The notes beneath the pieces were generated by a model, which was not told the DNA's origin, did no database searches, and saw only the letters and a program-made list of their open reading frames with translations. Made by a program: the position numbers and the translations under genes. Of a DNA stretch of 64,000 nt, positions 29,953 to 58,933 are shown piece by piece. Position 1 is the stretch's first letter; each line of letters opens with the position of its first letter. This stretch comes from an uncultured Gammaproteobacteria bacterium (GTDB lineage Bacteria; Patescibacteriota; Microgenomatia; CAYSOG01): NCBI GenBank assembly GCA_964432675.1, contig CAYSOG010000002.1, positions 6,975-70,974 on the forward strand, given 5' to 3'.

Positions 29953-31119
29953 TTAAAAGGAAGGCCGGTATATCGGAGAAGAAATCGAAGAAATAAACAA
30001 ATTAAGTGTACTTGGTGATATGTCTATAAGCCAATTTACGTTTTCTTGTTGTGACCGATCTTCGTTGTAAAAGACAACTGCTTGGATATGGGGGAAATTT
30101 GCGGGCACTTGCACTTGGAGCATATCTTTATACCAAGTACTTTTATCGCCACCGCGATCAGTCGTATTAACTTCGGCTAGCATAATTGGTTTAGTAGGGG
30201 AGAGGGCAATGAGTTCATTGTACGGCTCTCGGAAAACAGTTGCAAAGCTTTGCCATTGGCTCCATGACTGTGTGGTACCCCAGTTATATCCATCCACACC
30301 AAGCCAGTCAACGTTGGCATCCCCAGGATACAATGTTTTATAAGGAATACTTTGGTCATTCCCTTTATTGGGTGCAAAAACCCACAACACTTTGGTGGCA
30401 TTCTCAGAAGCAACGATCGAATGAAAACGTTGCCAAGCTGCTATAAAATCTTCTGGGGTATCATGAGTTTGCAGTGGACTCCAGGCAGTTGTTGGTAAGT
30501 TCATTTCCCAGGCAAACCGTAAAAAGATTGGCTTGTTAAATGTTGCTAAATTATGACCCACGGTATGTAAGAATGCGTCACAATTGCCATTTGCAATCGC
30601 TTTATAAAGGCTCAAGCCATTACTCTGGCACTGCGAAAAAAAGTATGGATTAATACTTAGCATCGGCCGCCAGCCATATTGGGTAATGGTGTTAAGCTCA
30701 CCGACAATAGCATCGGAGGCCAGTGCGTCCCATCCCCGATAGTAATGTGCAATAGCAACATGTTTCCCGATTTTTTGTTCGACCAATTGTAATTGATCAG
30801 GGTGTAGTGTTTTTGCATTGTCGTCCCAAAAACCCTGCGTCCACATGCCAAGATAAACCGCCCTGGTAGTCTCTACTGGCGGCTTAAGAGCTACCAGCTT
30901 ATTCGCTGGCGCAATACTAGCAACAGATTGCGTAGGGCTCGGTGTAGTCGCTATGGCTTCGCCTCTAACCGCTGGTGAAAATGTCGGAAAGTTACCGGCG
31001 CTCATAGGAGTTGTCGCACGATACTTACCGTACCATAGCACTGAGGTTACCCCAACGAGCAAAACAAAAGCTGTAAACAAAATAAGATGCTTGGGAAGCA
31101 TCATCCGTGAAAATCTCAT
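29953..31119 (-). CDS. secreted or membrane-anchored GH26-like glycoside hydrolase, paralog of the C-terminal domain of the upstream fusion
   Basis: Signal-anchor, then RFAWEMNLPTTAWSP, LWVFAPN and IMLAEVNTTD motifs parallel to the fusion protein's hydrolase domain. Confidence 0.7.
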   Translation of the reverse strand: MRFSRMMLPKHLILFTAFVLLVGVTSVLWYGKYRATTPMSAGNFPTFSPAVRGEAIATTPSPTQSVASIAPANKLVALKPPVETTRAVYLGMWTQGFWDDNAKTLHPDQLQLVEQKIGKHVAIAHYYRGWDALASDAIVGELNTITQYGWRPMLSINPYFFSQCQSNGLSLYKAIANGNCDAFLHTVGHNLATFNKPIFLRFAWEMNLPTTAWSPLQTHDTPEDFIAAWQRFHSIVASENATKVLWVFAPNKGNDQSIPYKTLYPGDANVDWLGVDGYNWGTTQSWSQWQSFATVFREPYNELIALSPTKPIMLAEVNTTDRGGDKSTWYKDMLQVQVPANFPHIQAVVFYNEDRSQQENVNWLIDISPSTLNLFISSISSPIYRPSF

Positions 31120-34012: not shown

Positions 34013-34441
34013 TTGCACACGGCAATTGACTGCACTGGTGGTGACCGGAAAAGATTGCGCGATGAAGAACTTATTCGTAGCGTACTTACCAAATTGCCCC
34101 GACGTATGCGCATTATATCATTAACCACGCCGATTGTTCTGCCAAGATGCTTTAACGACGTAAAAATTAATGGCAAATTGCAACGCGTCCCAACGGAAGA
34201 TTTATCTGGCTTTGTCCTGACTGAAGAAGGCCATATTGCAATACATACTGAGCCTGCACTTGGCAGCGCCTGGATTGATATTTTCCATAGCAGCAATACT
34301 TTGCTTCAAGCATGCCTTTCTATTATTACCGATACATTTGTATTTACTTCTCTACAAACTAAACTAATCAGAGTTCGCAGCCTTGATCCAGCTGATATTG
34401 GCGTTAGGATAACTGTTGAGCAAGAAAATACTGAATCATGA
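34013..34441 (+). CDS. S-adenosylmethionine decarboxylase-like (SpeH fold) protein lacking the pyruvoyl-precursor serine
   Basis: Aligns to small archaeal/bacterial AdoMetDC: N-terminal MH...GGD..L.D.E.I, then DLSGFVLTEEGHIAIHTEPALGSAWIDIFHS against the canonical [31 protein letters not shown]. ESH is replaced by EGH. Confidence 0.65.
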   Translation: MHTAIDCTGGDRKRLRDEELIRSVLTKLPRRMRIISLTTPIVLPRCFNDVKINGKLQRVPTEDLSGFVLTEEGHIAIHTEPALGSAWIDIFHSSNTLLQACLSIITDTFVFTSLQTKLIRVRSLDPADIGVRITVEQENTES

Positions 34442-34462: not shown

Positions 34463-34888
34463 ATGCATGCTCTTTTCAACGGCTCAGGCGGGAAAGAGGA
34501 ATACTTGGATGACGAAGATCGCGTGAAGAAAGCGCTCATCGCAGTACCTGAAAGTTGTGGCCTACTGGCACTGACAAGACCAAAAGTCTTACGTTATGCA
34601 CCCACGCAATTACTCAAAGAAGTAGACCCTCTACAACCAGTCGTTTGGGATGGTATTTGTGGCTCAATTTTTTTAGTATCGGGCAGATTTTCAATTTACA
34701 CGTTTCCAGCCAAGCAATACTTGTGGGCAGACCTTTTCAGTTTGCTTGACTTTGACACCATGGTAGCATTCGCAACGCTCCATGAGTATTTTCCGAATAC
34801 AAACTTCGATGTCGAAATCAACAAACGCGGACTGCCTTTGTTTGAACAAATGCCTGTAGTCGCACAGCAAACCAGAGAAAGGGTTTAG
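34463..34888 (+). CDS. S-adenosylmethionine decarboxylase-like protein, divergent paralog lacking the catalytic serine
   Basis: MHALFNGSGGKEEYLDDED...GICGSIFLVSGRFSIYTFPAKQYLWADLFS. The ESH position reads SGR. Confidence 0.55.
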   Translation: MHALFNGSGGKEEYLDDEDRVKKALIAVPESCGLLALTRPKVLRYAPTQLLKEVDPLQPVVWDGICGSIFLVSGRFSIYTFPAKQYLWADLFSLLDFDTMVAFATLHEYFPNTNFDVEINKRGLPLFEQMPVVAQQTRERV

Positions 34889-35913: not shown

Positions 35914-36270
35914 ATGCACATGATTTTTGATGGCCACGATGGTAATACCGACAAACTGGCAGATATAGAAATCATACAACAAGCGCTCAACGACTTGCCA
36001 GAGAGCATTGGTACGCAGAAGGTTTCCGAACCATATGCAATCCAATACAATGACTGCACATCTGATATACCTGGCGTTTCCGGATTCATCTCCATTCCTG
36101 ATGGTCATATTTTAATCAATACCTTTCCTGAGAAAGGGTATATCTGGGTTGATATTTTCTCTAGCAATAGCTTTGATGCAAATGTCGCGACAACCGAATT
36201 AATATACGCTTTCGACCTAGCAGAAGTTATATCAAGAGTCTTGGAACGACGGCCTATTCCTTTAGGGTAA
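35914..36270 (+). CDS. S-adenosylmethionine decarboxylase-like protein; third paralog, closest to the canonical enzyme but with Ser replaced by Gly
   Basis: DIPGVSGFISIPDGHILINTFPEKGYIWVDIFSSNSFDANVATTELIYAF aligns with [48 protein letters not shown]. The ES is replaced by DG. Confidence 0.65.
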   Translation: MHMIFDGHDGNTDKLADIEIIQQALNDLPESIGTQKVSEPYAIQYNDCTSDIPGVSGFISIPDGHILINTFPEKGYIWVDIFSSNSFDANVATTELIYAFDLAEVISRVLERRPIPLG

Positions 36271-36329: not shown

Positions 36330-38456
36330 TTGCACACGCAAGGTCCCTTTACTCTTGAATTCTTCCATGATACGCTAGGCGGTATGTTATCCAAAGACAC
36401 ACCAATTGCAGCGCTTGCTGGCATTGGGCCGACGTATGCCACAAAATTACAAAAACTTCATATTTTTACGGTTGGTGATTTGATTGAACATTATCCATTC
36501 CGCTATGAAAATTATGCATCAATAAAATCAATTGCCGAAACCAAAATAGGGGAGGAGGTTACAATAATTGGCACGCTTTGGGAAATTAAGAATGCTTATA
36601 CTCGCAATTACCGCATCAAAACAATTACCAAAGCACTCATCCATGACGGTAGCGGTACCATTGAAGCAGTCTGGTTTAACCAATCTTACCTTACTAAAAA
36701 TCTCCAAGCCGGTATGGAAGTTAGCCTTTCAGGTAAGCTCAAGCAAAACGGCTATAAATTGCAGCTTGTTTCGCCAGCCTACGAAATCTTAAAGTCCAAT
36801 CGCGAGACTGTTAATACCGGCCGCATTGTCCCAATTTATCCAGAAACAGAAGGGGTCACGTCACGCTGGCTAAGGACAAAGATTGCCCAATTGCTTCCAC
36901 AAATTAACCAAGATGTAACTGACTGGCTGCCGCGCCAAATTATCGAAAAAGCAGACCTATTACCGTTAGACGACGCATTGCAAAAAATCCATTTTCCTAA
37001 TGCAAAAGACGATATTATCCAATCACGAAAACGCATTGCCATTGACGAACTTCTAAAAGTCCACCTTACCGCACTAAAGCGCAAACAAGAATGGGAAGGT
37101 AAAAGCCATGGCCATGCATTTGTCATTGACCAAAAAAAAGTCCAGGACTTTATCGCACGTTTACCTTTCACATTAACAAAAGCCCAGTATCGTGTCATAG
37201 ATGAAATATTGGCTGACCTAAAAAATGATACTGCTATGAACCGCTTATTAGAAGGCGATGTCGGTAGCGGCAAAACGGTTGTCGCTGCAGTAGCAATGTA
37301 CATCGCTTTCTTAAATGGTAGACAATCAGCCATTATGGCGCCCACTGCCATACTCGCCCAGCAGCATTTCCAAACGCTTTCTAGTCTCTTAGAACCTCTT
37401 GGGTTAAAAGTCGCCCTTCTTACCGGTGGGAAACAACCAAAAGCTTCTGGTGACCAAAAATTACAAGCTTCAAGTTTCAAGCTTCAAGGAATGGATATTG
37501 TCGTTGGCACGCATGCTTTACTTTCCGAATCAACAAAGTTCAAAAATCTCGGATTTATTGTAATAGACGAGCAACATAAATTTGGTGTCGAACAGCGGGC
37601 ACTACTGCACCTCAAAGGCATAACACCACACGTTTTAACGATGACCGCAACACCAATACCCAGAACGCTTGCCCTAACACTCTATGGGAACCTTGACCTT
37701 TCTGTTTTGGATGAGATGCCAGTTGGCCGAACAAAACCGAAGACGTTTGTGGTGCCTCAGCAAAAACGACAAGATGCATACAATTTCATTGCCAAGGAAA
37801 TTACAGCAAAAAAAGTCCAGGCGTTTATTGTTTGCCCATTAATCGAGCTATCGGAAACGTTTAATACCGCAAAAGCAGCAACTGTAGAATACGAAAAACT
37901 CTCGACGGAAATTTTTCCGCAACTGCAACTTGGCTTACTCCATGGGCGCATGAGCTCCAAGCAAAAAGAAGAAACCATGGCAAAATTTCGAAGCCAAGAA
38001 CTTGATATTTTAGTTGCCACACCATTAGTCGAAGTAGGCGTTGATATTCCACATGCCACCATTATGGTCATAGAGGCAGCTGACCGGTTTGGCCTTGCCC
38101 AATTACACCAACTTCGCGGCAGAGTAGGCCGTAGGGAAGGGCAAGACGCGTTTTGCTTTTTATTTACCGAGCTCATTGGCGAAGAATCAATCAAACGGTT
38201 GCGGTCCATGGAAAAAATCTATAGTGGATTAGAACTAGCCGAAGTCGACCTACAATACCGCGGCGCAGGCAATATCTTTGGGACTGAGCAGCATGGCATT
38301 GCAACATTTAAGGTCGCCAAATTATCAAATCTCAAATTAATTGAGCAAACCAGAAAACTTGCGCAACAAATTTTTACTGACTACTACGAAAAAGGGGACC
38401 AAGAAGTCAAGGATACCGTTGATCGCTTTGACAAACGTTTAATCGAACCAAATTAG
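36330..38456 (+). CDS. recG: ATP-dependent DNA helicase RecG
   Basis: Wedge/OB domain, then helicase motifs (GDVGSGKTVVA, DEQHKFGV, TATPIPRTL, arginine finger QLRGRVGR). The start may be an internal Met (MLSKD). Confidence 0.9.
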   Translation: MHTQGPFTLEFFHDTLGGMLSKDTPIAALAGIGPTYATKLQKLHIFTVGDLIEHYPFRYENYASIKSIAETKIGEEVTIIGTLWEIKNAYTRNYRIKTITKALIHDGSGTIEAVWFNQSYLTKNLQAGMEVSLSGKLKQNGYKLQLVSPAYEILKSNRETVNTGRIVPIYPETEGVTSRWLRTKIAQLLPQINQDVTDWLPRQIIEKADLLPLDDALQKIHFPNAKDDIIQSRKRIAIDELLKVHLTALKRKQEWEGKSHGHAFVIDQKKVQDFIARLPFTLTKAQYRVIDEILADLKNDTAMNRLLEGDVGSGKTVVAAVAMYIAFLNGRQSAIMAPTAILAQQHFQTLSSLLEPLGLKVALLTGGKQPKASGDQKLQASSFKLQGMDIVVGTHALLSESTKFKNLGFIVIDEQHKFGVEQRALLHLKGITPHVLTMTATPIPRTLALTLYGNLDLSVLDEMPVGRTKPKTFVVPQQKRQDAYNFIAKEITAKKVQAFIVCPLIELSETFNTAKAATVEYEKLSTEIFPQLQLGLLHGRMSSKQKEETMAKFRSQELDILVATPLVEVGVDIPHATIMVIEAADRFGLAQLHQLRGRVGRREGQDAFCFLFTELIGEESIKRLRSMEKIYSGLELAEVDLQYRGAGNIFGTEQHGIATFKVAKLSNLKLIEQTRKLAQQIFTDYYEKGDQEVKDTVDRFDKRLIEPN

Positions 38457-38528: not shown

Positions 38529-39179
38529 ATGCCCACCAAAAATGGATTTGGTACCCTTCTTATTGTTGGCGTTGGTGCAGTGGTTGTAGTAATCCTTTTA
38601 GGGATAATTTTAGCGCTGAACAAAACCTCGAATAAACCCAAACCGTCTGCATCACCGATTGAAACAGCAAAATCAACGAAAGAGGCAGAATTGATGCCAA
38701 GTACGACATTTAAGCCTGTGGCCACCAAGGCTGCCACTAATTCCGCAAGTAATATTTGGCGGACCTATTCTGGTAATGGTATCCAATTCCAATACCCGTC
38801 CAATTGGCATCTTACGACAAAGCCAATAGCAGGTGGCGGCAATGCCATCATCGTTTCGATCGCTAGCTCTTCGGCAAATGTCGCCCAAAGCTTATCGGTT
38901 GAAATCTACAATCCTGGTGGCACGACGCCACAAACTGCCGATGCAGCTTTTAGTGCATTAGGGTACACTAAAAGCAATATTATTATCAACAATGCCCCGG
39001 CAAGTAAATATCAGGGATATATCAATACGAACACGTTACCACTCCAAGAAACTGCTGTTGTGTTTATGGATAATAACAAGACCTACCAGATTACCTTTGA
39101 TTATTCTTCGCAGCAGTTTGATAGCCAAATCCAGCAAAACTTTACCAAATTTTTAGCCTCATTGCGAATATTACAATAG
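38529..39179 (+). CDS. membrane-anchored hypothetical protein (family A of a paralog array)
   Basis: N-terminal TM (GFGTLLIVGVGAVVVVILLGIILAL), a linker, then a C-terminal domain beginning W(R/K)TY..NGI...YP..W. Confidence 0.55.
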   Translation: MPTKNGFGTLLIVGVGAVVVVILLGIILALNKTSNKPKPSASPIETAKSTKEAELMPSTTFKPVATKAATNSASNIWRTYSGNGIQFQYPSNWHLTTKPIAGGGNAIIVSIASSSANVAQSLSVEIYNPGGTTPQTADAAFSALGYTKSNIIINNAPASKYQGYINTNTLPLQETAVVFMDNNKTYQITFDYSSQQFDSQIQQNFTKFLASLRILQ

Positions 39180-40196
39180 CCCTACTCCCGAAATAATTCC
39201 AAACACACTGTCAGTTGGCCGACTTTGGTCAATCGTACCGCCCCATTCAACTTCAGTAAAACCGATCCTTTGGGGCATTGTCATCGGTAAGATGAGCGGA
39301 TCAACTGAGATAGGCTCTTTAAGCGGCTTAAAGTAGGCTAAAAACTCAATTCTCGTATCCGGTGCGGGAGAAATAGTCACGTGGTCAGTTCGATCTTTTT
39401 CGATGGGGTCAATGACAGAAAATAAGATATACGGGCTATTTAACGCCTGCAATTTCGGCACCCAAAAGTCCAAAAATTCCCGTTGTTCATCTGGTCTCAG
39501 GCCGAATTGTCCAGTTAGCAACGTTAAGATCGGTGCAAGATCTGCAGCCTTGATAACGATGCCTGTAGTGGGCTTGATGGATGCATGTACTGATGATTCA
39601 TAATACAGTTCGCGATACGTCCGTGCCTTAAAGCTCAGTGTACCATCTGGACTGACCTCTACCCCAAACCAGCCATTACCATACAGCGGGTCGCTTTCGA
39701 CGATCGTACCGGGAATCGTTAGGGTGACATCTACTGCCAACGGCTTTGTGGGATATAAGTAGATCACCGGTTTTAACATACAATAATCTCCGTCACCTAA
39801 ATTAGAACAAACTTTTTGGCCGAATTGCTCGCACTTAAAGAGATTTTTTTGCCACGGCAGTAATCCTTGTGGATCCTTTACGCCAGCGCAATAGTGTCCT
39901 TGACAAGTGACAGTATAGTCAGGGCACTGACAATTCGGTGAAACCGGTATAGCGCTATCAGCGCTGCAAGTGTCGTTTGGTATGTAGGGTGGGGGTGAAG
40001 CGCTTGGCGTTGGTGAGGCAATTTGAAAGGTATCAAGCTGTAATCGTCTATTTGCCAGAGGTGTACCTTGCGGAGCACCGACGAGGGTTGCATGTGGCGA
40101 AGTTGTGGGTATCGCTGATGTACTGGTGAGTGAACAACCAACAAGGATGAACAGTGGTAAAAAATAAACGAGCTTTTTCATAGCTATATTAATCAT
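39171..40196 (-). CDS. lipoprotein with a Cys-rich region and a conserved C-terminal domain (family B, copy 1)
   Basis: Lipobox LVGCSLT, then a Cys-rich segment (CSADSAIPVSPNCQCPDYTVTCQGHYCAG), then the conserved block KPVIYLYP...PGTIVESDPLYGNGWFGV...YRELYYES...FTEVEWGGTID. The start is probably MKKLVYF at 40181. Confidence 0.6.
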   Translation of the reverse strand: MINIAMKKLVYFLPLFILVGCSLTSTSAIPTTSPHATLVGAPQGTPLANRRLQLDTFQIASPTPSASPPPYIPNDTCSADSAIPVSPNCQCPDYTVTCQGHYCAGVKDPQGLLPWQKNLFKCEQFGQKVCSNLGDGDYCMLKPVIYLYPTKPLAVDVTLTIPGTIVESDPLYGNGWFGVEVSPDGTLSFKARTYRELYYESSVHASIKPTTGIVIKAADLAPILTLLTGQFGLRPDEQREFLDFWVPKLQALNSPYILFSVIDPIEKDRTDHVTISPAPDTRIEFLAYFKPLKEPISVDPLILPMTMPQRIGFTEVEWGGTIDQSRPTDSVFGIISGVGLL

Positions 40197-40254
40197 GTCC
40201 GTTCACCTTCATAAAGTCAAACTCAAACGACATCGTGTGTGATAGTATAGAATT

Positions 40255-40911
40255 ATGGCCAAAAAGGATGGGTTTGGGACGATTTTGATAATTGGCATTG
40301 GCGCAGTCGTTGTTATGGTGCTCGTGGCTATTATACTTTTCCTAAATCAGTCACATACCAAGCAAATTGCTTCGACCGCGAACGGTACTGCAATTACCGA
40401 ACCTGGCAGTGAAAATCAACACGCTGTCCAAACTCCAAGGCCGTCACCCAACAAAACCAGCAGTCCAACTGCAAGTAGCAGTGCGAGCTGGAAAACATAT
40501 ACTACTAACGGCATTTCACTCAAATATCCTAACGATTGGCTGGTAAGTGCAAACCCGGTTGTCGATGATCTAGGCACAACACTTTTCGTTGCTTCGCCTG
40601 ATACCAAAACGAACACTATATTCCGGGTATACCAATACGATGCAAGAAAGGTGTCACAAGAAAAAAGTGAAAATATCTTAACAGCCATAGGGCTTAAGAA
40701 ATCATCTACGGTGATAAACGGTGTCGCAACAGTGCAATACACCGGCACACTGTCAACAACACCATATCCGACCTATGAAAAAGTAATATTATTGACTTCT
40801 GGATCAAAATATTACCTAATCAAAATGTCTTACACCGCTCCAACTCCAAACAATGCAACATTAGCAGTTTTCCAAAACATTACCAATTCGTTACATTTGG
40901 AGATGGATTAG
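40255..40911 (+). CDS. membrane-anchored hypothetical protein (family A, paralog of 38529..39179)
   Basis: GFGTILIIGIGAVVVMVLVAIILFL..., then WKTYTTNGISLKYPNDWLVS, parallel to the first copy. Confidence 0.55.
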   Translation: MAKKDGFGTILIIGIGAVVVMVLVAIILFLNQSHTKQIASTANGTAITEPGSENQHAVQTPRPSPNKTSSPTASSSASWKTYTTNGISLKYPNDWLVSANPVVDDLGTTLFVASPDTKTNTIFRVYQYDARKVSQEKSENILTAIGLKKSSTVINGVATVQYTGTLSTTPYPTYEKVILLTSGSKYYLIKMSYTAPTPNNATLAVFQNITNSLHLEMD

Positions 40912-40935
40912 CTTCGTGCAGCAAAAATAAATTCA

Positions 40936-41907
40936 TTACCGAACCAACCATTCAAGAAGCGTATTTTCCATGTTACTGCCATTATCGATTGTGCCGCCCC
41001 ATTCGACTGCAGTAAATCCTGACCGGGTTGGGATACTCGAGGGAAGTGATAATGGCGTGATTTGGGTAGGTGCTGCAAGTGGTTTAAAGTAGGCTAAAAA
41101 TTCAATCCACGTATCCGGTTTCGGTGAAATAGACACATGGTCGATGCGATCCTTTTCAATTGGGTCAATGATTGAAAACAGGATGTATGGACTATTTACG
41201 GCTTCCAGTTTTGGCACCCAATAATCCAAGAATTCCTGTTGTTCCGATGGCATTAGTCCAAGTTGCGAGGTAATAAGCGTGAGCATTGGTTTTAGCTGCT
41301 TAGTCTCGAGAATAATACCGCTAGTTGGTTTTCGAACTGTATCTACACCTGATTCATAATATAACTCTTTATACGCTTTTGACCGATACTCAAGCGAGCC
41401 ATTTGGATGCGCTAATACACCAAACCAGCCGTTCCCGTAGAATGGATCGCTTACCACGATTTTACCTGGTACGGTTACATTAACGTCCACTAGAGTATCT
41501 TTGACTGGATATAAATAGATAACTGGCTTAGCAACACAATAATGGCCATCGGCCCGGTTTTCACAAACTATGCCGTATTGCTGGCATGCCCCGCTTGTGC
41601 AAACCCCACCCGTGCAATATAAACCCTGGTCACCGCCTGAGCAATAGCAACTGCCATCGGTCGGCGTACCGGTGTCTGAGGGACATTGCCCCTGGGGCAC
41701 ACCAGGTGACGATGGCTGGGGTGTAGCCGAAGGGGTAGTAATTGCTATTTTAAATGTGTCCATTTCAAGTCTTTTGTTGGATTCACCGCTAGGCACGCCA
41801 ACAATTGTGCGATTTGGCGTAGCAGAGGGTTGTGGGGTATTGGCAGAACCGGTAATAGAACAGCTTGTCAGTAATAGGCCAAAAAACAACCAGCAAAATC
41901 GTTTCAT
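40936..41907 (-). CDS. lipoprotein with Cys-rich region and conserved C-terminal domain (family B, copy 2)
   Basis: Trimmed from track ORF 40936..42264 to the ATG at 41907 (MKRFCWLFFGLLLTSCSITG) with AGAAGG RBS. This removes a 283-nt overlap with the next gene. Conserved block KPVIYLYP...DPFYGNGWFGV...FTAVEWGGTID. Confidence 0.6.
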   Translation of the reverse strand: MKRFCWLFFGLLLTSCSITGSANTPQPSATPNRTIVGVPSGESNKRLEMDTFKIAITTPSATPQPSSPGVPQGQCPSDTGTPTDGSCYCSGGDQGLYCTGGVCTSGACQQYGIVCENRADGHYCVAKPVIYLYPVKDTLVDVNVTVPGKIVVSDPFYGNGWFGVLAHPNGSLEYRSKAYKELYYESGVDTVRKPTSGIILETKQLKPMLTLITSQLGLMPSEQQEFLDYWVPKLEAVNSPYILFSIIDPIEKDRIDHVSISPKPDTWIEFLAYFKPLAAPTQITPLSLPSSIPTRSGFTAVEWGGTIDNGSNMENTLLEWLVR

Positions 41908-41981
41908 ATGGTACCTTCTATATTGCCTTGGAATGCCCATTGTAGTCAATTGTCTATTCTGTGCAAAAGAACGATATGGCC

Positions 41982-42962
41982 CTATTGTAGGAAAGGAAGT
42001 GGGAAAGGTGATGGTTGCAATGGCGTGGTATCTATGGTACCGCCCCATTCGACTGCGGTAAAACCGTTTCGTACAGGAACTGATGACAACTGAAGCGGCG
42101 TTATTTGGACTGGTGTTACAAGTGGTTTGAAGTAGGCTAAAAACTGGATTTTCGTATCCGGTGCTGGCGTTATAGCAACATGGTCGATCTTTTCCTTCTC
42201 GACAGGGTCGATTAAAGAGAAAAGGACGTACGGCGAGTGAAGCGCTTGTAACTTCGGTAGCCAAAATGCTAGGAATTCCTGTTGTTCAGGCTCGGTTAAT
42301 CCTAACTGGCTGGTTAAAATAGATAATATCTGCGGTAATTGTTCTGTCTTGATAACTATGCCGTTTGTCGGCTTTTGGAACTGTGTAATAGCGGTTTCGT
42401 AGTATAATTCTTTGTATTGCTTCCCTTGATACGAGAGTGTTCCACTTGGATAAGCCAAAACGTTTTCCCAACCGATACCGTAGTCCGGATCGCTTACGAC
42501 GATCCTTCCTGGCGTTTGCACCTCTACAGAAACCAACATTGGTTTGCTCGGATAAAGATAGACCACAGGTTTTCCAAGGCAAAAGGTTCCACTACCGCTA
42601 CCGGTTAGGTCAGGCATCGTACACCACTGGCCGGGAGCGCCAGAACAGTCTTGTGGTGGCAATCCGTTACTTGGTGTAACCACTTTTTCGCATTGGTGGT
42701 CTTTGCAAGTTACAAGCCATACTTGACATTCACACCCAGGGCCAGCCGGTTTTCCAGCATCGTGGTTACAGTTGTCACCAGGAGTTGGGCTGGGCAAACG
42801 AAACGTATCAAGCTGTAAACGCCGGTTAGCTTGCGCATTATCATTTGGTAAACCAACCGTTGTTTGGGCAGGTGTCGCGTGGGGTAGGGGACTGCTACCA
42901 TCGCCGGTAAGCGAACAGCCGGTTAATAAAAAAACTGCTGAGAGAAGATATATTTTTTGCAT
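41982..42962 (-). CDS. lipoprotein with Cys-rich region and conserved C-terminal domain (family B, copy 3)
   Basis: MQKIYLLSAVFLLTGCSLTG lipobox. Cys-rich segment (CNHDAGKPAGPGCECQVWLVTCKDHQCEK). Conserved block KPVVYLYP...DPDYGIGWENV...FTAVEWGGTID. Confidence 0.6.
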   Translation of the reverse strand: MQKIYLLSAVFLLTGCSLTGDGSSPLPHATPAQTTVGLPNDNAQANRRLQLDTFRLPSPTPGDNCNHDAGKPAGPGCECQVWLVTCKDHQCEKVVTPSNGLPPQDCSGAPGQWCTMPDLTGSGSGTFCLGKPVVYLYPSKPMLVSVEVQTPGRIVVSDPDYGIGWENVLAYPSGTLSYQGKQYKELYYETAITQFQKPTNGIVIKTEQLPQILSILTSQLGLTEPEQQEFLAFWLPKLQALHSPYVLFSLIDPVEKEKIDHVAITPAPDTKIQFLAYFKPLVTPVQITPLQLSSVPVRNGFTAVEWGGTIDTTPLQPSPFPLPFLQ

Positions 42963-43239: not shown

Positions 43240-43407
43240 ATGACACCGCTTCCAAAGAAAAGACATAGTAAGTCACGCAAAAACATTCGCCGTGGTGCGA
43301 TTAAGCTTATGGTACCCAATTTGGTACTTTGTGCTAATTGTGGTGCGCCAAAATTACCGCATACAGAATGTAAAAAGTGCGGTGCTTATAAAGCTGCCAG
43401 TGCCTAA
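43240..43407 (+). CDS. rpmF: 50S ribosomal protein L32. The ORF track omitted it because it is under 60 aa.
   Basis: MTPLPKKRHSKSRKNIRRGAIKLMVPNLVLCANCGAPKLPHTECKKCGAYKAASA is a bL32 N-terminal signature with a CxxC...CxxC zinc ribbon. Confidence 0.8.
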   Translation: MTPLPKKRHSKSRKNIRRGAIKLMVPNLVLCANCGAPKLPHTECKKCGAYKAASA

Positions 43408-43456
43408 ACGCTTCACCTTACTATTGCACTAAGCCTTATATCGGCTTAATTAAAAA

Positions 43457-43876
43457 ATGAAGAAGAAAACCGACCCCAGGCATCAAGCCCGAAGACAAGT
43501 TGTCCAAAGCCTCTTTGAATGGGGTTTTCGTGGTGAAATGCACGAAGGTGATGAGAAAGCCCAAGCGATTGTAGCAATTATCCCTAGTCTAGACGCCATT
43601 ATCCAAAAAAGCGCGCCACAATGGCCACTTGACCAAATTAATAAGGTTGATTTGGCTGTCTTACGCTTGGCGATGTACGAATTATTAGTTGATATCCAAG
43701 CACCACCAAAGGTGATTATTGATGAAGCAATCGAACTTGCAAAGGAACTAGGTACCGACTCTTCCGGCAGTTTCATTAATGGTGTCTTAGGGAATGTCAT
43801 GAATAATTTTACGGCCTACCAACAAACTTTAGAGGCCGACGGTATAACAATAAGAAAGGAAAATCTCGCAGGGTGA
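43457..43876 (+). CDS. nusB: transcription antitermination factor NusB
   Basis: RHQARRQVVQSLFEW...LAVLRLAMYELL...IDEAIELAKELGTDSSGSFINGVLG matches the NusB family. Confidence 0.85.
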   Translation: MKKKTDPRHQARRQVVQSLFEWGFRGEMHEGDEKAQAIVAIIPSLDAIIQKSAPQWPLDQINKVDLAVLRLAMYELLVDIQAPPKVIIDEAIELAKELGTDSSGSFINGVLGNVMNNFTAYQQTLEADGITIRKENLAG

Positions 43877-43952
43877 AGGGGAAAGCGCAAAGGTACAAGT
43901 GCTAATCGCATAATCATCCCTTAACGCTTTACCCTTTTCCCTAGACAAAAAT

Positions 43953-44642
43953 ATGGAAACTAATTTCGCGCAGCTTGAAAAAGAAATGGGCATTACTATT
44001 AATGACCCCAAAATCATTGAACTGGCTTTTATCCACCGGTCATACTTAAACGAAAATAAGGCATACCAACAGTCAAATGAGCGCCTTGAATACCTAGGCG
44101 ATGCGATCTTATCGTTTGTTGTGGCATTGCATTTATTTAATCGTTTTCCTGAGGCCACCGAAGGGGAGTTGACCAATTACCGTGCAAGCTTAGTATCACG
44201 GAAATTTTTGGGCAATGTGGGCAATGATCTTAAGCTTGGCCAATACCTTCGTTTGGCAAAAGGGGAAGAAGAAGCTAATGGCCGCAATAACTTGACTTTA
44301 CTTTCTAACACCTATGAGGCGTTGATTGGGGCGATATTTTTAGACCAAGGGATCAAAGCGACCACTGAGATTATTGAGAAGCATGTTCTTTCATCAATTG
44401 ACGATATTGTTGAAAACAAGCTCTACCGCGATAACAAAAGTGCTTTACAAGAAAAAGCCCAAAGCCAATACCGCAAACCACCGGTTTACCATGTTGTTAA
44501 GGAAGAAGGCCCTGAACACGCTAAAGTATTTACAGTTTCAGTTTCGATTAACGGTGAAGTTATGGGCACAGGGAATGGCAAAAGTAAACAGCAGGCCGAG
44601 CAAGACGCCGCCCGCCTGGCTTTAGAAAAATTAACAACGTAA
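43953..44642 (+). CDS. rnc: ribonuclease III
   Basis: RNase III signature ERLEYLGDAIL and a C-terminal dsRBD (PPVYHVVKEEGPEHAKVFTVSVSINGEVMGTGNGKSKQQAEQDAARLALEKL). Confidence 0.9.
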   Translation: METNFAQLEKEMGITINDPKIIELAFIHRSYLNENKAYQQSNERLEYLGDAILSFVVALHLFNRFPEATEGELTNYRASLVSRKFLGNVGNDLKLGQYLRLAKGEEEANGRNNLTLLSNTYEALIGAIFLDQGIKATTEIIEKHVLSSIDDIVENKLYRDNKSALQEKAQSQYRKPPVYHVVKEEGPEHAKVFTVSVSINGEVMGTGNGKSKQQAEQDAARLALEKLTT

Positions 44643-50078: not shown

Positions 50079-50972
50079 TCAATTCTTCGTAAGTGGTGTT
50101 GTCGCACTACCGTTAAAAAGTACGTAGTCGAATATCGACGGTAAGCCACCAATTGACCGTTCGACCTGGACAACCCGCTTGGTGTCTCCAGAAACCCCTT
50201 CTGAACGAATTGTATACGACTGGACTGGAATTTGCTGGCCGTTTGGCGTCACCATTCGTATTGTCGCGCTATTATACAGCGGTCGGATGCGAATAAGCTT
50301 GCCGCTAGCAGGCAGCGAAATTGTCTGCTTGCTGACAAATTGGTTGAGGCTGTTATCTGTCCCTGCTGTTATAAAACCATTTGAAGCCGCTAAACTCGGA
50401 CAACTGTTTGCATTATAATTCCCGCCGGCTGGTGAGGACCGCGAAACGCCATAATTCGTACCATCGAAGGTAACAATCGATATTTCAAGAGAGGCCGGCA
50501 TCGCCGCAGGCGGCGTACAAGAAGAACCGGCTGGGTTTTCTTGCGTATTGTTCTTTAAGCTCCAGTACACATCTAACGACGTTGCAACCGTACACCCACT
50601 GCAGTGTGATTGGTCGATATCAAGCTGGATCACATCATCTTGGGCAACTGGCTTTGCAGGTTGGTAAATGCCAGTCGTTGAACCCGACTTTGATATAGTA
50701 ATATTCGACTGCGCGCCACCGACAGAAATAGCATTTAAGGAAACACTATTTTGGCCAGAGGGAATTAATGAGGGAATGTCTTGACGCAACGTGCTCTCTA
50801 TACCAGCTTCAGCCGCTTCAAAAGCCCGGCTCGAACGCTCTGTTGTTGACGATTCCTTTACATTTGTTACCGTTCGTGCAATAACCGAAAGGCCTACGGT
50901 AAGTGTTACGACTAAAATTAGCAATAATACGACGAGTGCCTGCCCTTTTTGCAGGTTCTGGTGAGTTAGCAT
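50079..50972 (-). CDS. PilX-like minor pilin / pilus assembly protein
   Basis: PilX_N-like N-terminus QKGQALVVLLLILVVTLTVGLSVIA. The start is set at the internal Met; the track ORF extends to 51032. Confidence 0.5.
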   Translation of the reverse strand: MLTHQNLQKGQALVVLLLILVVTLTVGLSVIARTVTNVKESSTTERSSRAFEAAEAGIESTLRQDIPSLIPSGQNSVSLNAISVGGAQSNITISKSGSTTGIYQPAKPVAQDDVIQLDIDQSHCSGCTVATSLDVYWSLKNNTQENPAGSSCTPPAAMPASLEISIVTFDGTNYGVSRSSPAGGNYNANSCPSLAASNGFITAGTDNSLNQFVSKQTISLPASGKLIRIRPLYNSATIRMVTPNGQQIPVQSYTIRSEGVSGDTKRVVQVERSIGGLPSIFDYVLFNGSATTPLTKN

Positions 50973-51110
50973 CCGCAATGTTGCAATACGTGTAAATATC
51001 GACTTGGGCATAAGAATAAGCCACACAACCATTTCTTAATGTGTGTACATAAAGCTTAGCAAACGCGAAACCGCAAAGTCAACCGGGAAGGATTGCTCAA
51101 AAAGGCTGAT

Positions 51111-51731
51111 TTAATAGGAACGCAGGGAAAAACTTGATAAAAAGGGTAACGATCCGGTATTTTCTTGCCGAGTACTTGCGGCAGTCTGGCTTTTGCTCTG
51201 CTGCAGTGTAAACGACACAATGACAACCGTGGTATTTGTTCCAGCGTTTTGGACGACCTGGAAATATGGTGCTGGCGACACCGCAAGGTCAATTGCGTTT
51301 AAGGCCGCGTTATTGTTAGTTATAGATGTTGCAGTAGCAGGATTGAAGGTAGGGGATTGCAACGCTGCCAATGACTGGTTTGAGTCAACACCAATAAAAC
51401 CATTGGCAGTGTTTGAGGTAACCAATGATATACGCGTATAAAGTGGCTGCGATGTATCAAGCACCTTATTTTGGACTATGATATGGTCAAGGTTTGTACC
51501 AGCGGCTGGAGGATCAACGATAGCCGAAGCATTGCTAACGGTTCGTGATATCCGTTCAAGAGCGGTGTTGCCATTCTCTTGTAGTTGGGTCGAAATAGTG
51601 GCTTTATTAGCGCTCCGTAACACACTAATAAAGACGTTCGTTCCAATAACAACCATAATGCCAGTAATGGCAATCACGACGAGCAGCTCAATTAAAGTGA
51701 ACCCATTTAGTGACCTTTGCCATTTGATCAT
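51111..51731 (-). CDS. type IV pilin-like protein (prepilin N-terminus)
   Basis: MIKWQRSLNG/FTLIELLVVIAITGIMVV. Start set at the Met so the gene abuts the upstream pilin. Confidence 0.7.
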   Translation of the reverse strand: MIKWQRSLNGFTLIELLVVIAITGIMVVIGTNVFISVLRSANKATISTQLQENGNTALERISRTVSNASAIVDPPAAGTNLDHIIVQNKVLDTSQPLYTRISLVTSNTANGFIGVDSNQSLAALQSPTFNPATATSITNNNAALNAIDLAVSPAPYFQVVQNAGTNTTVVIVSFTLQQSKSQTAASTRQENTGSLPFLSSFSLRSY

Positions 51732-51732
51732 A

Positions 51733-52326
51733 TTAGTTTGTCGCCTCAAAATTACTGTAATAGCTTGTGAGCGTTGAACTATGACTGCCGCTCGCGTCCT
51801 GCCAAAAAACATAAACCACAACGGTGGCACATTTTGAGCCGGCAGACGCACCGGCAGCGCTAGGACAAGTTGAAGTTGCCGAATTATCAATCATTATTTT
51901 TCGAATAAATCCATTAGCCAAATTTTCGTTTGGGTCAACTTGGGTTGTAATATTAGTACAAGGTGCAGTATCACCAGAAGCGTTCGGCAGAAGCCAGTCA
52001 GCAGTTGGATTACTCGTAAATAATGACTGATTAATATAGTAACAGGTGCCACCACTTGTTCCTTTGCTGCTAAAAAAGGTAGAAGGGTTAATGTCGCGGT
52101 AGGCCCTCACTGATTCCATCGCTTGCCTGGCATACGCATTGGCAATTGTTTGGTTCTTCGAAAATGTTGCGTTCCGAACGGAATTAATGGATGCCACCGA
52201 TAGTGCTGTTAAAACTATCATCGCAATTGTTAACGCCGCCAACACTTCCAAAAGCCCTTGACCTTTTTGCGACTTAATTATGGAACAGGTATTAGTTTGC
52301 AATTTTTTTAGTAATAGTTTATGCAT
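51733..52326 (-). CDS. type IV minor pilin-like protein
   Basis: KG/QGLLEVLAALTIAMIVL has a Gly cleavage site and Glu at +5. Confidence 0.6.
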   Translation of the reverse strand: MHKLLLKKLQTNTCSIIKSQKGQGLLEVLAALTIAMIVLTALSVASINSVRNATFSKNQTIANAYARQAMESVRAYRDINPSTFFSSKGTSGGTCYYINQSLFTSNPTADWLLPNASGDTAPCTNITTQVDPNENLANGFIRKIMIDNSATSTCPSAAGASAGSKCATVVVYVFWQDASGSHSSTLTSYYSNFEATN

Positions 52327-52347
52327 AATCGTATAATCTTGTATCCA

Positions 52348-53058
52348 CTACTGGTTCGTTAAGACGGCACCGTTCGTTTGGACCGTAATTGAGTACGCAG
52401 GCGTACTACCTTGGGTTGCTGTGACGGTAAGCGATTGTGTAATGGCAATCTTATTTGCACTGGTAAATTGGCGGTTATTATAAAACTCAGCAGTCTGGGT
52501 AACTGGCTTAAATAAAATATAGATTGGTGAAGCATATGCGCCGCCATCTACCGCCAGTGCCAATACAAGAGTAGTTGACGGAAACTGTAACGTCTTACCA
52601 TTACCAACATCAGAAGCGGCACCGACAACAGCGCCACAGCTGCCGCTTAATTGGACAACAGGAGCTGCCCCTGGGGTTATTTTCACATACCAGCCATCAA
52701 AGGCATATTGCGATGGTGAACCAACGGGCGGCGAGGGGTTTTGCGGACATGCCTGTGCGCCATTTCCTGAAATTGCACTATTTTGAGCAACGTGTAATGA
52801 CTGGGCTAAAAGTGTTCCGGATTGCACAAGCTGCTGACTGCGGTTGTAGTTATTGTAGGCTGGAATAGAAAAACCAAGCAGTAAAGAAATAATGGTTATG
52901 ACGACTAATAGTTCAATCAGCGTAAAGCCCAGAGTAGGGGAAAGTAGAAAGCCCTTCGACTCAAGCGCCGGACGAGCACGGGAAGCGGGAAGAACGGAAA
53001 ATACCTTCTCTTTGTGTCCTATGTTTTGTGATTTGCGATTTGTAATTTGCGTTCTCAT
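52348..53058 (-). CDS. type IV pilin-like protein
   Basis: LG/FTLIELLVVITIISLLLG. The leader is unusually long, so the true start is probably an unannotated internal GTG or TTG. Confidence 0.65.
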   Translation of the reverse strand: MRTQITNRKSQNIGHKEKVFSVLPASRARPALESKGFLLSPTLGFTLIELLVVITIISLLLGFSIPAYNNYNRSQQLVQSGTLLAQSLHVAQNSAISGNGAQACPQNPSPPVGSPSQYAFDGWYVKITPGAAPVVQLSGSCGAVVGAASDVGNGKTLQFPSTTLVLALAVDGGAYASPIYILFKPVTQTAEFYNNRQFTSANKIAITQSLTVTATQGSTPAYSITVQTNGAVLTNQ

Positions 53059-53100
53059 TACGTTTTTATAGTAGCCTTCTTAATGAAGTGAAGTCAATTT

Positions 53101-53628
53101 TTAGCAGCCATTGGGCATACTTATTTTCGTCAGTCCTGTCCCTATTTCATAATGGCATGCGTCGTTGCCGCCATCGTTCGCGTTTTGCATTTGGCTTAGC
53201 GAATATTCCATAACGGCATCAAGTTTATACAAATTACCACTCCGATAGTACCGGTATACATACTTACCTGCGTTTAATGGATCAACTGGCAATTTTTCGA
53301 TGTATTTTGATAAGTCAACAGGAATCCAACCAGTACCATTTACTTTTGCTAAAGTTGTTGAGGACGAGGCTTGTGTGCTCGTCCGCAAGCGCATATCAGC
53401 ATCCGGTGGTATGCTATTATCTGCAATATAGCGCTCGAGGGCTGCACTTAAGACTGTTATGTCGGCTATGCGACGTTCGTCCCGGCTTTGCTTATTTAGC
53501 CGATCAGGCCGTATATAGATAAGTACGCCAGTGCTAAGAATCGCAACTAACAGAATAATTGTTAGCAGTTCAATCATCGAAAAGCCTGATATTTTGTATT
53601 GGTGATGGTAGAAGGCAGCTTTAACCAT
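53101..53628 (-). CDS. type IV pilin-like protein
   Basis: G/FSMIELLTIILLVAIL prepilin motif. Confidence 0.65.
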   Translation of the reverse strand: MVKAAFYHHQYKISGFSMIELLTIILLVAILSTGVLIYIRPDRLNKQSRDERRIADITVLSAALERYIADNSIPPDADMRLRTSTQASSSTTLAKVNGTGWIPVDLSKYIEKLPVDPLNAGKYVYRYYRSGNLYKLDAVMEYSLSQMQNANDGGNDACHYEIGTGLTKISMPNGC

Positions 53629-53691
53629 TGATGTAAAACTTTATATTTATGTGGACTTGTATTAAGGCAATATAAATCACAAACTTCGCAC

Positions 53692-54812: not shown

Positions 54813-54819
54813 GCTATTT

Positions 54820-55710: not shown

Positions 55711-55820
55711 AAAATTTCCGAAGGTTGGTATTTTGCCAATATAATAGACGACATACAAGCGGGTAGGACCTGTTTCCATTCCTTGGCCCTAGACCCGCCT
55801 GAATGTTGTTCTCGTTATAA

Positions 55821-56324: not shown

Positions 56325-56351
56325 CTCCTTTCAGTTAAATAACAATATTTT

Positions 56352-56912: not shown

Positions 56913-57212
56913 ATTTGATCACCACCTTCCTTAAAGAAATAGGCGAGTGCGCCGAAAAAATATTATGCAAATATAAATATGAAGGCCAATTCATGCCCGA
57001 AGTTCCAGCGGAAAAAGGTATAGATGTTTTTACTGTCTTTGAGATACCAGTTGATACCGATGCGGATTGGAAAATATAGGAAGATAAGACGCGCATCATG
57101 CGGCAAAGCAATAATATCGCGCGTGCAAAAACGTGCTGGGTGGGCAGGATGTTCATAATTTGTCTCTTATACTATTGTTGTCATAATGCAGTTTAAAATA
57201 CAAGCCGCTATT

Positions 57213-58919: not shown

Positions 58920-58933
58920 GGCGGTTGCTTATT

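Follow-up and report, generated by a model that had tools for sequence, protein, structure and literature searches.

What is the organizing unit of a run of five genes encoding two families of envelope proteins, and do the members of the two families act together? We address these questions for a 64-kb stretch of DNA (the window) for which an initial annotation had described an array of two interleaved families of paralogs, Cys-rich lipoproteins (here C) and TM-anchored proteins (T), in an organism of small genome. All five open reading frames were recovered in the order and orientation described (Table 1), and the existence of two paralogous families is borne out by similarity far above chance: within-window BLASTP gave 49-52% identity among C1, C2, and C3 (E about 1e-101 to 1e-115) and 30% identity between T1 and T2 (E 4e-24). 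The same search found no further C or T copies elsewhere in the window. The nearest homologues point to the Patescibacteria type, in agreement with a small genome.

A Duplicated Pair of Convergent Genes

The families are not simply interleaved. The locus comprises a conserved C/T module of Patescibacteria, two genes in length and present in two and a half copies, with C1/T1 and C2/T2 being tandem duplicates of one convergent pair and C3, which lies upstream of C2 on the same strand, being a solo C without a T partner. Read along the minus strand, the array is C-C-T-C-T, a pattern found in many relatives. T1 and C1 overlap at their 3' ends, and the 3' ends of T2 and C2 are separated by a 24-bp spacer in which no terminator-like hairpin was found. 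The promoters of C1 and T2 must both sit in the gap between these divergent genes. Promoter-like sites were seen on the minus strand in or near this gap and at C3, but such sites are not enriched across the region relative to shuffled sequence. For C2, the longest open reading frame (442 aa, from a TTG at 42264) overlaps C3; the real start, MKRFCW at 41907, gives a product that matches the database protein P0002. At the DNA level the copies are only 37-64% identical, and neither recombination cassettes nor repeats were seen.

Table 1. Coordinates of genes and features in the C/T array (positions within the window)
Feature	Position	Strand	Remarks
T1 (TM1)	38529-39179	+	216 aa; TM-anchored Mog1/PsbP-fold protein
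T1 ectodomain	38757-39176	+	residues 77-216
T1/C1 3'-end overlap	39171-39179		9 bp, convergent genes
C1 (Lipo1)	39171-40181	-	336 aa from MKKLVYF; convergent with T1
C1, alternative ATG	40196	-	341 aa; P0001
C1 C-terminal domain	39228-39773	-	residues 137-318, KPVIYLYP to EWGGTID
C1 variable 8-Cys module	39780-39968	-	residues 72-134
C1 linker motif	40026-40043	-	LQLDTF
C1 lipobox	40134-40145	-	LVGC (Cys16)
C1/T2 divergent intergenic region	40182-40254		73 bp, C1 start to T2 start
Promoter-like site	40220-40192	-	in or near C1/T2 gap
T2 (TM2)	40255-40911	+	218 aa; TM-anchored Mog1/PsbP-fold protein
T2 ectodomain	40489-40908	+	
C2 (Lipo2)	40936-41907	-	323 aa; P0002; convergent with T2
C2 C-terminal domain	40984-41529	-	
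C2 8-Cys module	41536-41685	-	
C2 linker motif	41752-41769	-	LEMDTF
C2 lipobox	41860-41871	-	LTSC (Cys16)
C3 (Lipo3)	41982-42962	-	326 aa; P0003; solo, without T partner
C3 C-terminal domain	42030-42572	-	
C3 8-Cys module	42579-42770	-	
C3 linker motif	42801-42818	-	LQLDTF
C3 lipobox	42915-42926	-	LTGC (Cys16)
Promoter-like site	43003-42974	-	at C3

Synteny in relatives, a check that had been proposed for the array, was assessed in a census of 20 non-redundant related loci. These contain 36 genes of type C and 24 of type T, which form 23 convergent C/T pairs; in 16 of the pairs the two genes share 4-9 bp at their 3' ends or have no more than 9 bp between them. The arrays C-T-C-T, C-C-T-C-T, and C-T-C-T-C-C-T recur, and the pair has been duplicated as a unit in loci L001, L008, L009, and L018 as well as in the window. 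The neighborhood of the pair is recG/rpmF in the window, rpsB/glyA in L005, and MazG/DUF2341 in L003; because the surrounding genes are not the same in the window as in its relatives, the pair evidently moves or persists as a unit. Meanwhile, a core neighborhood of rpsB-tsf-frr-uppS and glyA is common to many of the related loci, which indicates vertical inheritance of local gene order. No adjacent T was found for 13 of the 36 C genes, and two loci (L006 and L013) have no T at all. Given the convergent orientation, the two genes of a pair are transcribed separately, an uncommon arrangement for obligate partners.

Architecture of the C and T Proteins

C is a membrane-tethered protein whose extracytoplasmic part consists of a Pro/Thr-rich linker, in which the motif LQLxTF is nearly invariant, then a hypervariable 8-Cys module, and finally the conserved domain at the C-terminus. 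The lipoprotein signals claimed for C1, C2, and C3 stand: each has a signal peptide and a canonical lipobox ([LVI][ASTVI][GAS]C), followed by exactly 8 more cysteines, and on this basis all three are predicted lipoproteins. (The match to Pfam LPAM_1 is weak, at 13.2 bits for C3 against a cut-off of 20.) A lipobox is present in just 7 of the 120 closest C homologues, the others being TM-anchored. Within the linker, three positions are strongly conserved among 96 family members (L47 in 91, Q48 in 92, and P59 in 91), and the motif LQ[LIM] occurs in 27 of 31 proteins of one branch of the family (branch A) as compared with 3 of 72 proteins of the other (branch B, comprising Firmicutes and other CPR). 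An AF2 model of C1 has a mean pLDDT of 78.3, with values of 79-98 for the blocks of the C-terminal domain and about 45 for the region of the linker motif.

The contrast between a variable Cys-rich part and a conserved C-terminal domain was likewise upheld, with copy-to-copy identities of 26-42% for the former and 60-65% for the latter (linker, 44-54%; C-terminal tail, 0-20%). Across the family the Cys module is hypervariable in sequence and ranges from 63 to 108 aa in length, and 79 of 112 members have exactly 8 cysteines in it. Since synonymous sites are saturated (dS between C copies is greater than 2 or undefined), dN/dS cannot demonstrate diversification.

The C-terminal domain itself, put earlier at roughly 230 aa, is real but smaller, spanning about 182 aa, and it contains no cysteine. 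It is under strong constraint. Invariant residues are Lys137, Tyr141/143/167/189, Glu195/232/235/312, Arg305, and Trp171/240/313, and some 35 positions, including four Glu, one Arg, one Lys, and several Tyr and Trp, are common to Patescibacteria and Firmicutes. The solo copy C3 keeps the polar residues that are invariant in the family, but has Gln in place of E279, a residue conserved in branch A only. The family is large, with at least 6,770 representatives (50%-identity clusters) at E <=1e-3 and 3,098 at E <=1e-30. Nor is it a speciality of small genomes, being common also in gut Clostridia and other Firmicutes. In Clostridia it is found within ECF-sigma operons, and it is invariably C-terminal in surface proteins bearing LRR/BspA, Sel1, Ank, VWA, or SdrD_B modules. 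The proposed profile and structure searches left the domain unmatched: neither Pfam nor NCBIfam gave a match for the three window proteins and 10 Firmicutes homologues (threshold E = 1) or for 20 larger members of the family (threshold E = 0.01), and the PDB holds no solved relative of the fold. A candidate assignment to NCBIfam NF045974 (CD1108 family mobile-element protein) was rejected, two Firmicutes homologues reaching 16.5-16.7 bits (E about 0.005) against a cut-off of 100 bits and the window proteins scoring nothing, although a distant relationship is conceivable. PADLOC and PHROG gave zero matches.

The same searches did place T, previously a protein of unassigned type. Its ectodomain has the Mog1/PsbP fold, an alpha-beta-alpha sandwich; the structure model of T was built from only four sequences. 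PsbP_2 (PF18933) was matched by 13 of 26 members of the T family (E <=0.1; best E 1.1e-7) and PsbP by 6, and the top matches of a T-family profile in the PDB were PsbP and DcrB/DUF1795; T1 and T2 individually score 20.8 bits (E 4e-4) and 19.1 bits (E 1.4e-3) against PsbP_2, below the gathering cut-off of 27. In T1 a TM helix (approximately residues 10-28) and a low-complexity linker precede the ectodomain. The W.TY..NGI..YP..W motif, which had been read as a C-terminal domain, is actually the first beta-hairpin of the ectodomain (residues 77-93). T is an N-in/C-out TM protein, with 99 Lys and Arg residues before the TM helix and 40 after it when summed over the family. A class III signal peptide of the type IV pilin kind, with the prepilin cleavage motif G|FTL(I/V)E, was considered for the N-termini of T and of related C proteins. 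For T it was rejected: the corresponding segments (NGFGTLLIVG in T1, DGFGTILIIG in T2) lack Glu at +5, and eight true pilins in the window carry GFTLIELLVV. A type IV pilus cluster is located 8 kb from the array.

Possible Roles of the C/T Pair

T, the 8-Cys module, and the LQL motif co-occur in branch A and are missing from 64 branch-B loci, where the domain functions without T. Moreover, distances among T proteins, which are merely 16-29% identical across the family, correlate better in Mantel tests with those of the Cys module (r = 0.60) than with those of the C-terminal domain (r = 0.48), although shared phylogeny alone could yield both values. From the co-occurrence and the Mantel ranking we infer that T is associated with C through the latter's variable part. 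The lipobox or TM anchor, the disulfide-rich module, the ECF-sigma operons, and the surface-protein fusions all point to an extracytoplasmic, envelope setting.

We tentatively propose, as a real possibility, that C and T assemble into an extracytoplasmic complex, with T bound to the variable part of C and the conserved domain acting on a polymer of the envelope, either by binding or by processing it. The two proteins would meet on the outside of the cytoplasmic membrane, where T would contact the lineage-variable Cys-rich module, the LQLxTF linker, or both, and would dock with C or regulate it, possibly by inhibition. Comparable binding of protein partners is known from other envelope proteins of the Mog1/PsbP fold. 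The conserved domain would bind or enzymatically process a conserved polymer of the cell envelope (a glycan or wall component), a suggestion prompted by the invariant residues, that is, by residue types and context only; neither a catalytic motif nor a ligand could be recognized. Tandem duplication and divergence of the variable parts would then create several specificities around one conserved activity. Against a complex, T is missing beside C3 and 13 of the 36 C genes of relatives, and throughout branch B. In a more elaborate version, which we judge quite improbable, the domain would be a new-fold extracytoplasmic enzyme acting on envelope polymers in both Patescibacteria and gut Firmicutes. 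Patescibacteria would have incorporated it into a novel type of surface module, in which fast-evolving T would specifically bind and gate the enzyme through the variable disulfide-rich/LQLxTF region, in the manner of an inhibitor or immunity protein at the symbiont-host interface, and the conserved 3' overlap would couple expression of the two genes by antisense transcription.

Could C instead be an effector, with a domain lytic or toxic to the envelope of a host or competitor, and T its protective membrane-anchored inhibitor? The array would then be an arsenal, orphan effectors included. In favor of this reading, T lies directly downstream of C, fast evolution is seen both in T and in the Cys module, solo copies occur within arrays, the domain in Firmicutes sits C-terminally behind adhesion or repeat modules much as a toxin domain would, and Patescibacteria are commonly episymbionts. 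We nonetheless regard this as unlikely. The C-terminal domain, the part that varies in polymorphic toxins, is the most conserved part of C, which is membrane-tethered and in which profile searches found no domain for secretion or delivery. Effectors and their immunity genes normally share a strand, but T is on the one opposite to C. T is absent, furthermore, beside the unpaired C genes and from every one of the 64 branch-B loci, many of which encode simple gut-Firmicutes lipoproteins, in tandem and beside housekeeping genes, and the PADLOC and PHROG searches lend no support.

Doubtful, too, is a variable adhesin or host-recognition cassette, in line with the host or prey interaction suggested in the initial annotation, in which a diversifying Cys-rich tip would recognize ligand, the conserved domain would form a structural or wall-associated base, and T would be a membrane co-receptor or anchor. 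The constancy of the Cys count in a module so variable in sequence and length is as expected for such a cassette, as are the several diverged copies common in each genome and the adhesion-type fusion partners seen elsewhere, and the nearby pilus cluster fits a surface-contact lifestyle. However, saturation of dS leaves positive selection hypothetical, no direct evidence of host or prey interaction was found, no host is known, and the variable module lies between anchor and conserved domain rather than distally. The invariant charged residues and the conservation from Patescibacteria to Clostridia (35-40% identity), moreover, are more like those of an active or ligand-binding site than of an inert base.

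Alternatively, C and T could be functionally independent envelope proteins that form no complex and whose adjacency is inherited synteny in one clade. Their location on opposite strands, and hence in no operon, the C genes without T, and the vertically inherited core neighborhood are all in accord with independence. We consider it improbable given that the pair has repeatedly been duplicated as a unit, that it occurs in differing neighborhoods (the window, L005, and L003), and that its 3' ends abut or overlap tightly in 16 of 23 pairs despite the low identity of T. Finally, that the domain is a divergent housekeeping enzyme (an L,D-transpeptidase, peptidase, or amidase) with a trivial explanation for copy number, the case that the initial annotation had named as refuting, has only the general envelope context in its favor and is extremely improbable: no L,D-transpeptidase (YkuD), peptidase, or other known peptidoglycan enzyme was matched in Pfam, NCBIfam, or the PDB at the E thresholds used, and the domain conserves no Cys, His, or Ser that could act as a nucleophile, and no His at all.

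The domain is thus a large family without a Pfam or NCBIfam model or a solved structure that spans episymbiotic Patescibacteria and abundant gut Clostridia, and a name or a structure for it would provide annotation for thousands of envelope proteins now called "hypothetical." Its convergent pairing with a PsbP-fold partner provides a concrete two-protein hypothesis for the little-known cell surface of Patescibacteria, and the 3'-overlapping layout may be a natural example of expression coupled through antisense transcription. If the domain is merely a structural lipoprotein module, the finding reduces to a new DUF and a syntenic neighbor.

Comparison with Known Systems

The closest comparison for C is with the Firmicutes proteins, examples being the tandem lipoproteins of about 206-211 aa in Pseudoflavonifractor and Flavonifractor (L041 and L076) and WP_013483720.1 of Ruminococcus albus 7 pRUMAL02, annotated as a "BspA family leucine-rich repeat surface protein." They share with the window proteins a domain of about 180 aa (35-41% identity) with the motifs KPVIYLYP, GW, LGL..E..EF..W.P, and R.GFT.VEWGG, and the domain is again C-terminal, usually in lipid- or TM-anchored proteins and often in tandem arrays. 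Unlike the window C proteins, they lack the 8-Cys module, the LQLxTF motif, and a T partner, and their contexts differ (ECF sigma/anti-sigma operons, Memo and PGA_cap neighbors, or housekeeping flanks).

Mog1/PsbP-fold immunity proteins are known from T6SS effector-immunity pairs, namely Tse3-Tsi3 (4luq), Tle4-TplEi/Tli4 (5h7y), and PldA-PA3488 (7wdk). The window showed no T6SS, a system not expected in an organism of this type. We did not assign C/T to this class: C is membrane-tethered, carries no delivery domain, ends in a highly conserved domain, and has no known toxicity, the genes are convergent rather than co-directional, and many C copies have no T. Polymorphic toxins and the surface-lipoprotein families of reduced genomes resemble the array in being tandem envelope paralogs with variable and conserved segments. 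Membership among the polymorphic toxins was rejected, since in C the variable part is internal and N-proximal and the C-terminal domain conserved, the reverse of the toxin pattern.

For T, the natural relatives are the extracytoplasmic proteins of the Mog1/PsbP fold: PsbP_2 (PF18933), PsbP (PF01789), CyanoP (2xb3), DcrB/DUF1795 (6e8a), and the mycobacterial proteins LpqN, Mtc28, and Apa. T has no tie to photosystem II, MmpL transporters, or lipoprotein maturation. It is anchored not by a lipobox but by an N-terminal TM helix followed by a long low-complexity stalk, and peculiar to it among these families is a fixed convergent partner gene, C.

The Array and Its Products

The five genes lie between recG and rpmF–nusB–rnc, and the gene order proposed for them in the initial annotation was borne out, with T1 and T2, which encode transmembrane (TM)-anchored proteins, on the plus strand and C1, C2, and C3, which encode Cys-rich lipoproteins, on the minus strand (see the table below). 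Pairwise identity among the full-length C1–C3 proteins is 49–52% (E 1e-101 to 5e-115), that between T1 and T2 is 30% (E 4e-24), and no additional copies of either family were found in the window. The GC content of the array, about 0.44, equals that of its flanks, which consist of housekeeping genes, so the array does not stand out as an island. Rfam identified only two tRNAs in the window, both outside the array, and a promoter and terminator scan returned counts no higher than the shuffled expectation. A comparison of dN/dS between the paralogs, as the initial annotation had suggested, was uninterpretable because synonymous sites were saturated, dS being saturated or undefined in every region.

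Elsewhere in the window are other adjacent paralog pairs with 25–35% identity (E 1e-21 to 1e-30) and three paralogous small open reading frames (ORFs) with a mutual identity of 29–32%, the third of which is a match to PF02675, S-adenosylmethionine decarboxylase (E 7e-17). For a small genome this is an unusual copy number.

Each of C1–C3 is composed of five parts: a lipobox, with its Cys at residue 16 in all three proteins; a Pro/Thr-rich linker; a Cys module, exactly eight further Cys residues following the lipobox inside 50–64 residues; a conserved, Cys-free domain of about 182 residues extending from KPVIYLYP to EWGGTID; and an unconserved tail. Identity between the copies is 60–65% in the C-terminal domain, 44–54% in the linker, 26–42% in the Cys module, and 0–20% in the tail. 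In C homologs from other Patescibacteria (P0006–P0120) the anchor is mostly a TM segment rather than a lipobox, and motifs such as (K/R)GGIE... or KGxIGTGT(L/V)Y recur ahead of that segment.

Coordinates of the array genes, their flanks, the linker motif, and other features in the window
Feature	Position	Strand	Remark
recG	36330–38456		flank of array
T1	38529–39179	+	TM protein
C1 (Lipo1)	39171–40181	−	
T2	40255–40911	+	
C2 (Lipo2)	40936–41907	−	
C3 (Lipo3)	41982–42962	−	
rpmF–nusB–rnc	43240–44642		flank of array
RNase III gene	43953–44642		
LQ(L/I)xTF motif in C1	40026–40043	−	
LQ(L/I)xTF motif in C2	41752–41769	−	
LQ(L/I)xTF motif in C3	42801–42818	−	
Adjacent paralog pair	1612–2325 / 2340–3041	+	
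Adjacent paralog pair	3207–3815 / 3859–4332	+	
Adjacent paralog pair	27176–29884 / 29953–31119	−	
Three paralogous small ORFs	34013–34441, 34463–34888, 35914–36270	+	
Type IV pilus gene cluster	50079–61795	−	sequence reading only
Pilin ORF starts	51111, 52348, 53101, 53692, 54165, 55821, 56352, 57213	−	
PilD-like peptidase	54820–55779	−	sequence reading
PilC-like protein	57714–58919	−	sequence reading
Two homologous ATPase-sized genes, PilT/PilB-looking	58934–61795	−	sequence reading

C and T Genes Form a Conserved Convergent Module

A database search with C1 returned 502 relatives, none with an assigned name; those labeled by organism all came from the Patescibacteria group or Levyibacteriota. 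On four long contigs the C homolog was followed, tail-to-tail, by the gene for a TM protein of about 200–226 residues that shares with T1 and T2 the motif W.xY...Y.i.YP..W, and on one related locus (L001) the order was C-T-C-T. A wider scan with one genome per species yielded 80 loci. The T family was assembled from the neighbors of C genes in related loci, a word-indexed search having given only three proteins, and hidden Markov models for both families were then used to count pairs in the close, Cys-rich branch (branch A), represented by 20 non-redundant loci. With 36 C and 24 T genes, these loci yielded 23 convergent pairs. The 3′ ends overlapped by 4–9 bp in ten of the pairs (as in L001, L005, L007–L010, L018, and L022) and were no more than 9 bp apart in six more (16/23 together). 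The window itself has a 9-bp overlap between T1 and C1 (39171–39179) and a 24-bp spacer between C2 and T2. The relatives display the patterns C-T-C-T, C-C-T-C, C-C-T-C-T, and C-T-C-T-C-C-T; on the minus strand, the five genes of the window run C3-C2-T2-C1-T1 and show the C-C-T-C-T pattern.

Given this layout, transcripts of pairs with overlapping 3′ ends must stop inside, or read into, the partner gene, and a scan of the window revealed no terminator-like hairpin between convergent C and T genes. This arrangement may permit antisense coupling of expression. A gene for RNase III is located about 1 kb from the array, probably by coincidence.

The pair is adjacent to recG and rpmF in the window, to rpsB–tsf–frr and glyA in several relatives, and to other genes elsewhere; because its neighborhood varies among genomes, it behaves as a self-contained unit. 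No third conserved component emerged near the pair, where only housekeeping genes of the core synteny recur, together with an occasional VWA-domain TM protein. In 4 of the 20 loci (e.g., L005:5136–6020) the gene for the latter directly precedes C, and it is absent from the window; in one protein, P0218, VWA is fused to the C family. The N-terminus of the VWA-domain protein is similar to those of the TM-anchored C homologs, and these observations may indicate a common sorting signal or a third component.

An origin of the array in a phage or mobile element was rejected on phage-database, viral-contig, and GC evidence. The sole "phage" match to the C domain (L089; MT835506.1, "Bacteriophage sp.") is an unverified scaffold in which carboxyltransferase and oxaloacetate-decarboxylase-type metabolic genes surround the C-domain protein and which, from its gene content, looks like a bacterial chromosome rather than a phage. 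Only five matches were obtained in 2.9 million viral contigs, and the single one inspected sits just outside a prophage integrase.

A Large Family Defined by the C-Terminal Domain

The C-terminal domain is outside every described family. It had no match in Pfam, NCBIfam, PHROG, or PADLOC and no relative in the PDB by sequence or profile, and a Foldseek search of the PDB with its AF2 model returned nothing at E ≤ 1e-3. The model is confident (pLDDT 79–98 in blocks of ten residues) and consists of a β-sandwich half (approximately residues 139–211) followed by an α/β half. Searching 1.84 billion cluster representatives with a profile recovered 6,770 matches at E ≤ 1e-3 and 3,098 at E ≤ 1e-30. Full-length matches, comprising Cys module and domain, were confined to Patescibacteria-type genomes. 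The domain alone, at 35–41% identity, is common in Oscillospiraceae, Lachnospiraceae, Erysipelotrichaceae, Flavonifractor, Ruminococcus, and Selenomonadaceae as well as in Saccharibacteria and Kerfeld-, Falkow-, Magasanik-, Wolfe-, and Peribacteria. Several loci with the full-length, Patescibacteria-type module carry the record title "uncultured Gammaproteobacteria bacterium" (L012, L013, L018, and L020–L022), another is titled "Candidatus Acidiferrales" (L019), and some loci of the distant branch are titled "Alphaproteobacteria"; such labels are probably erroneous or placeholders.

In the distant relatives (branch B) the domain either constitutes the entire mature part of lipoproteins of about 206–215 residues, often two to four in tandem, or forms the C-terminus of larger proteins with Sel1, ankyrin, VWA, SdrD_B, or LRR/BspA modules at the N-terminus. 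None of 64 branch-B loci had a T gene. In Clostridia a recurrent neighbor was an ECF sigma/anti-sigma-like operon, and in some Patescibacteria it was a Memo+PGA_cap protein. In eight loci from Clostridia MAGs (L023, L028, L032, L038, L039, L064, L068, and L079) the C-domain lipoprotein ends an apparent operon that first encodes, in this order, an ECF sigma factor, an anti-sigma-like TM protein of about 190–210 residues, and, in seven of the eight, a Big_14 protein of about 590 residues. In Falkow-, Kerfeld-, Magasanik-, and Peribacteria (L026, L036, L042–L044, L059, L070, and L082) a protein of about 590–650 residues bears the domain at its C-terminus and is preceded by a fused Memo-like and PGA_cap (CapA-like) protein of about 624 residues.

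About 35 positions of the domain are conserved across both branches, including K137, Y141, Y143, Y167, W171, Y189, E195, E232, E235, W240, R305, T309, E312, and W313. No Cys, His, or Ser of the domain is conserved across the two.

The T Protein and Its Relationship to C

T can be added to the Mog1/PsbP superfamily as a new member with sub-threshold scores. T1 and T2 scored 20.8 and 19.1 bits against PsbP_2 of Pfam, both below the cut-off of 27, and among 26 family members 13 matched PsbP_2 (best E 1e-7) and six matched PsbP. The best PDB matches of the family profile were PsbP, CyanoP, and DcrB/DUF1795. The AF2 model of T1, from an alignment of only four sequences, is confident for the ectodomain (residues 77–216), with pLDDT mostly 77–93, and 60–64 at residues 101–120; listed with it are BT_1490 (12.2), TplEi (11.8), CyanoP (11.6), LpqN (11.1), and Tsi3 (10.8), and further Mtc28, PsbP, PA0094, Mog1, Apa, DcrB, and SciW. 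A positive-inside count of 99 versus 40, summed over the family, places the N-terminus of T inside and the ectodomain outside. T sequences diverge fast (16–29% identity family-wide), with Tyr89, Pro90, and Tyr192 as the sole nearly invariant residues. A pilin-like signal in the N-termini of T or related C proteins was rejected, the canonical motif being present in the true pilins of the window and missing from T. Those pilins, at least eight paralogs with the prepilin motif GFTLIELLVV, belong to the type IV pilus cluster.

Certain features of C travel with T. The 8-Cys module occurs in branch A (median of eight Cys residues) and is missing from branch B (median of two). In branch A the linker bears a nearly invariant motif, LQ(L/I)xTF...TPxP (L47 in 91 of 96 family members, Q48 in 92), which is specific to this T-partnered branch; LQ[LIM] occurs in 27 of 31 pre-domain regions of branch A versus 3 of 72 of branch B. 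The LQ(L/I)xTF stretch is unstructured in the AF2 model, within an otherwise low-complexity linker, and the motif is a candidate site for docking or for processing. Among 22 natural pairs, distances between T ectodomains correlated with those between Cys modules (Mantel r = 0.60, partial r = 0.55) and more weakly with those between C domains (r = 0.48, partial r = 0.40); these correlations are no more than suggestive, since values of this kind can arise from shared phylogeny alone.

C and T constitute a conserved module of two convergent genes, duplicated in tandem, for two extracytoplasmic, membrane-tethered proteins, T with a Mog1/PsbP fold and C with a strongly constrained domain of a large uncharacterized family. 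Our tentative reading, to which we give somewhat less than even weight, is that T would bind the lineage-variable part of C, serving as its docking partner or regulator, and that the conserved domain would bind or process a conserved envelope polymer. The fold of T and the adjacency of the genes would also suit an effector and its immunity protein, but the C-terminus of C is conserved, C is membrane-tethered, the two genes are on opposite strands, and many C genes have no T. Other alternatives are that the array is an adhesin cassette, as the initial annotation had proposed, and that C and T are linked by synteny alone and do not interact. That the C domain is a divergent known enzyme is essentially excluded.

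Our search of the literature yielded no relevant paper and no mention of the C/T pairing, the LQLxTF motif, or the Cys module. The C/T module, which pairs a membrane-tethered envelope protein with a partner of the PsbP fold, is a concrete, widely distributed case with a predicted function; Patescibacteria genomes harbor many such uncharacterized families, and that of the C domain merits a model of its own.
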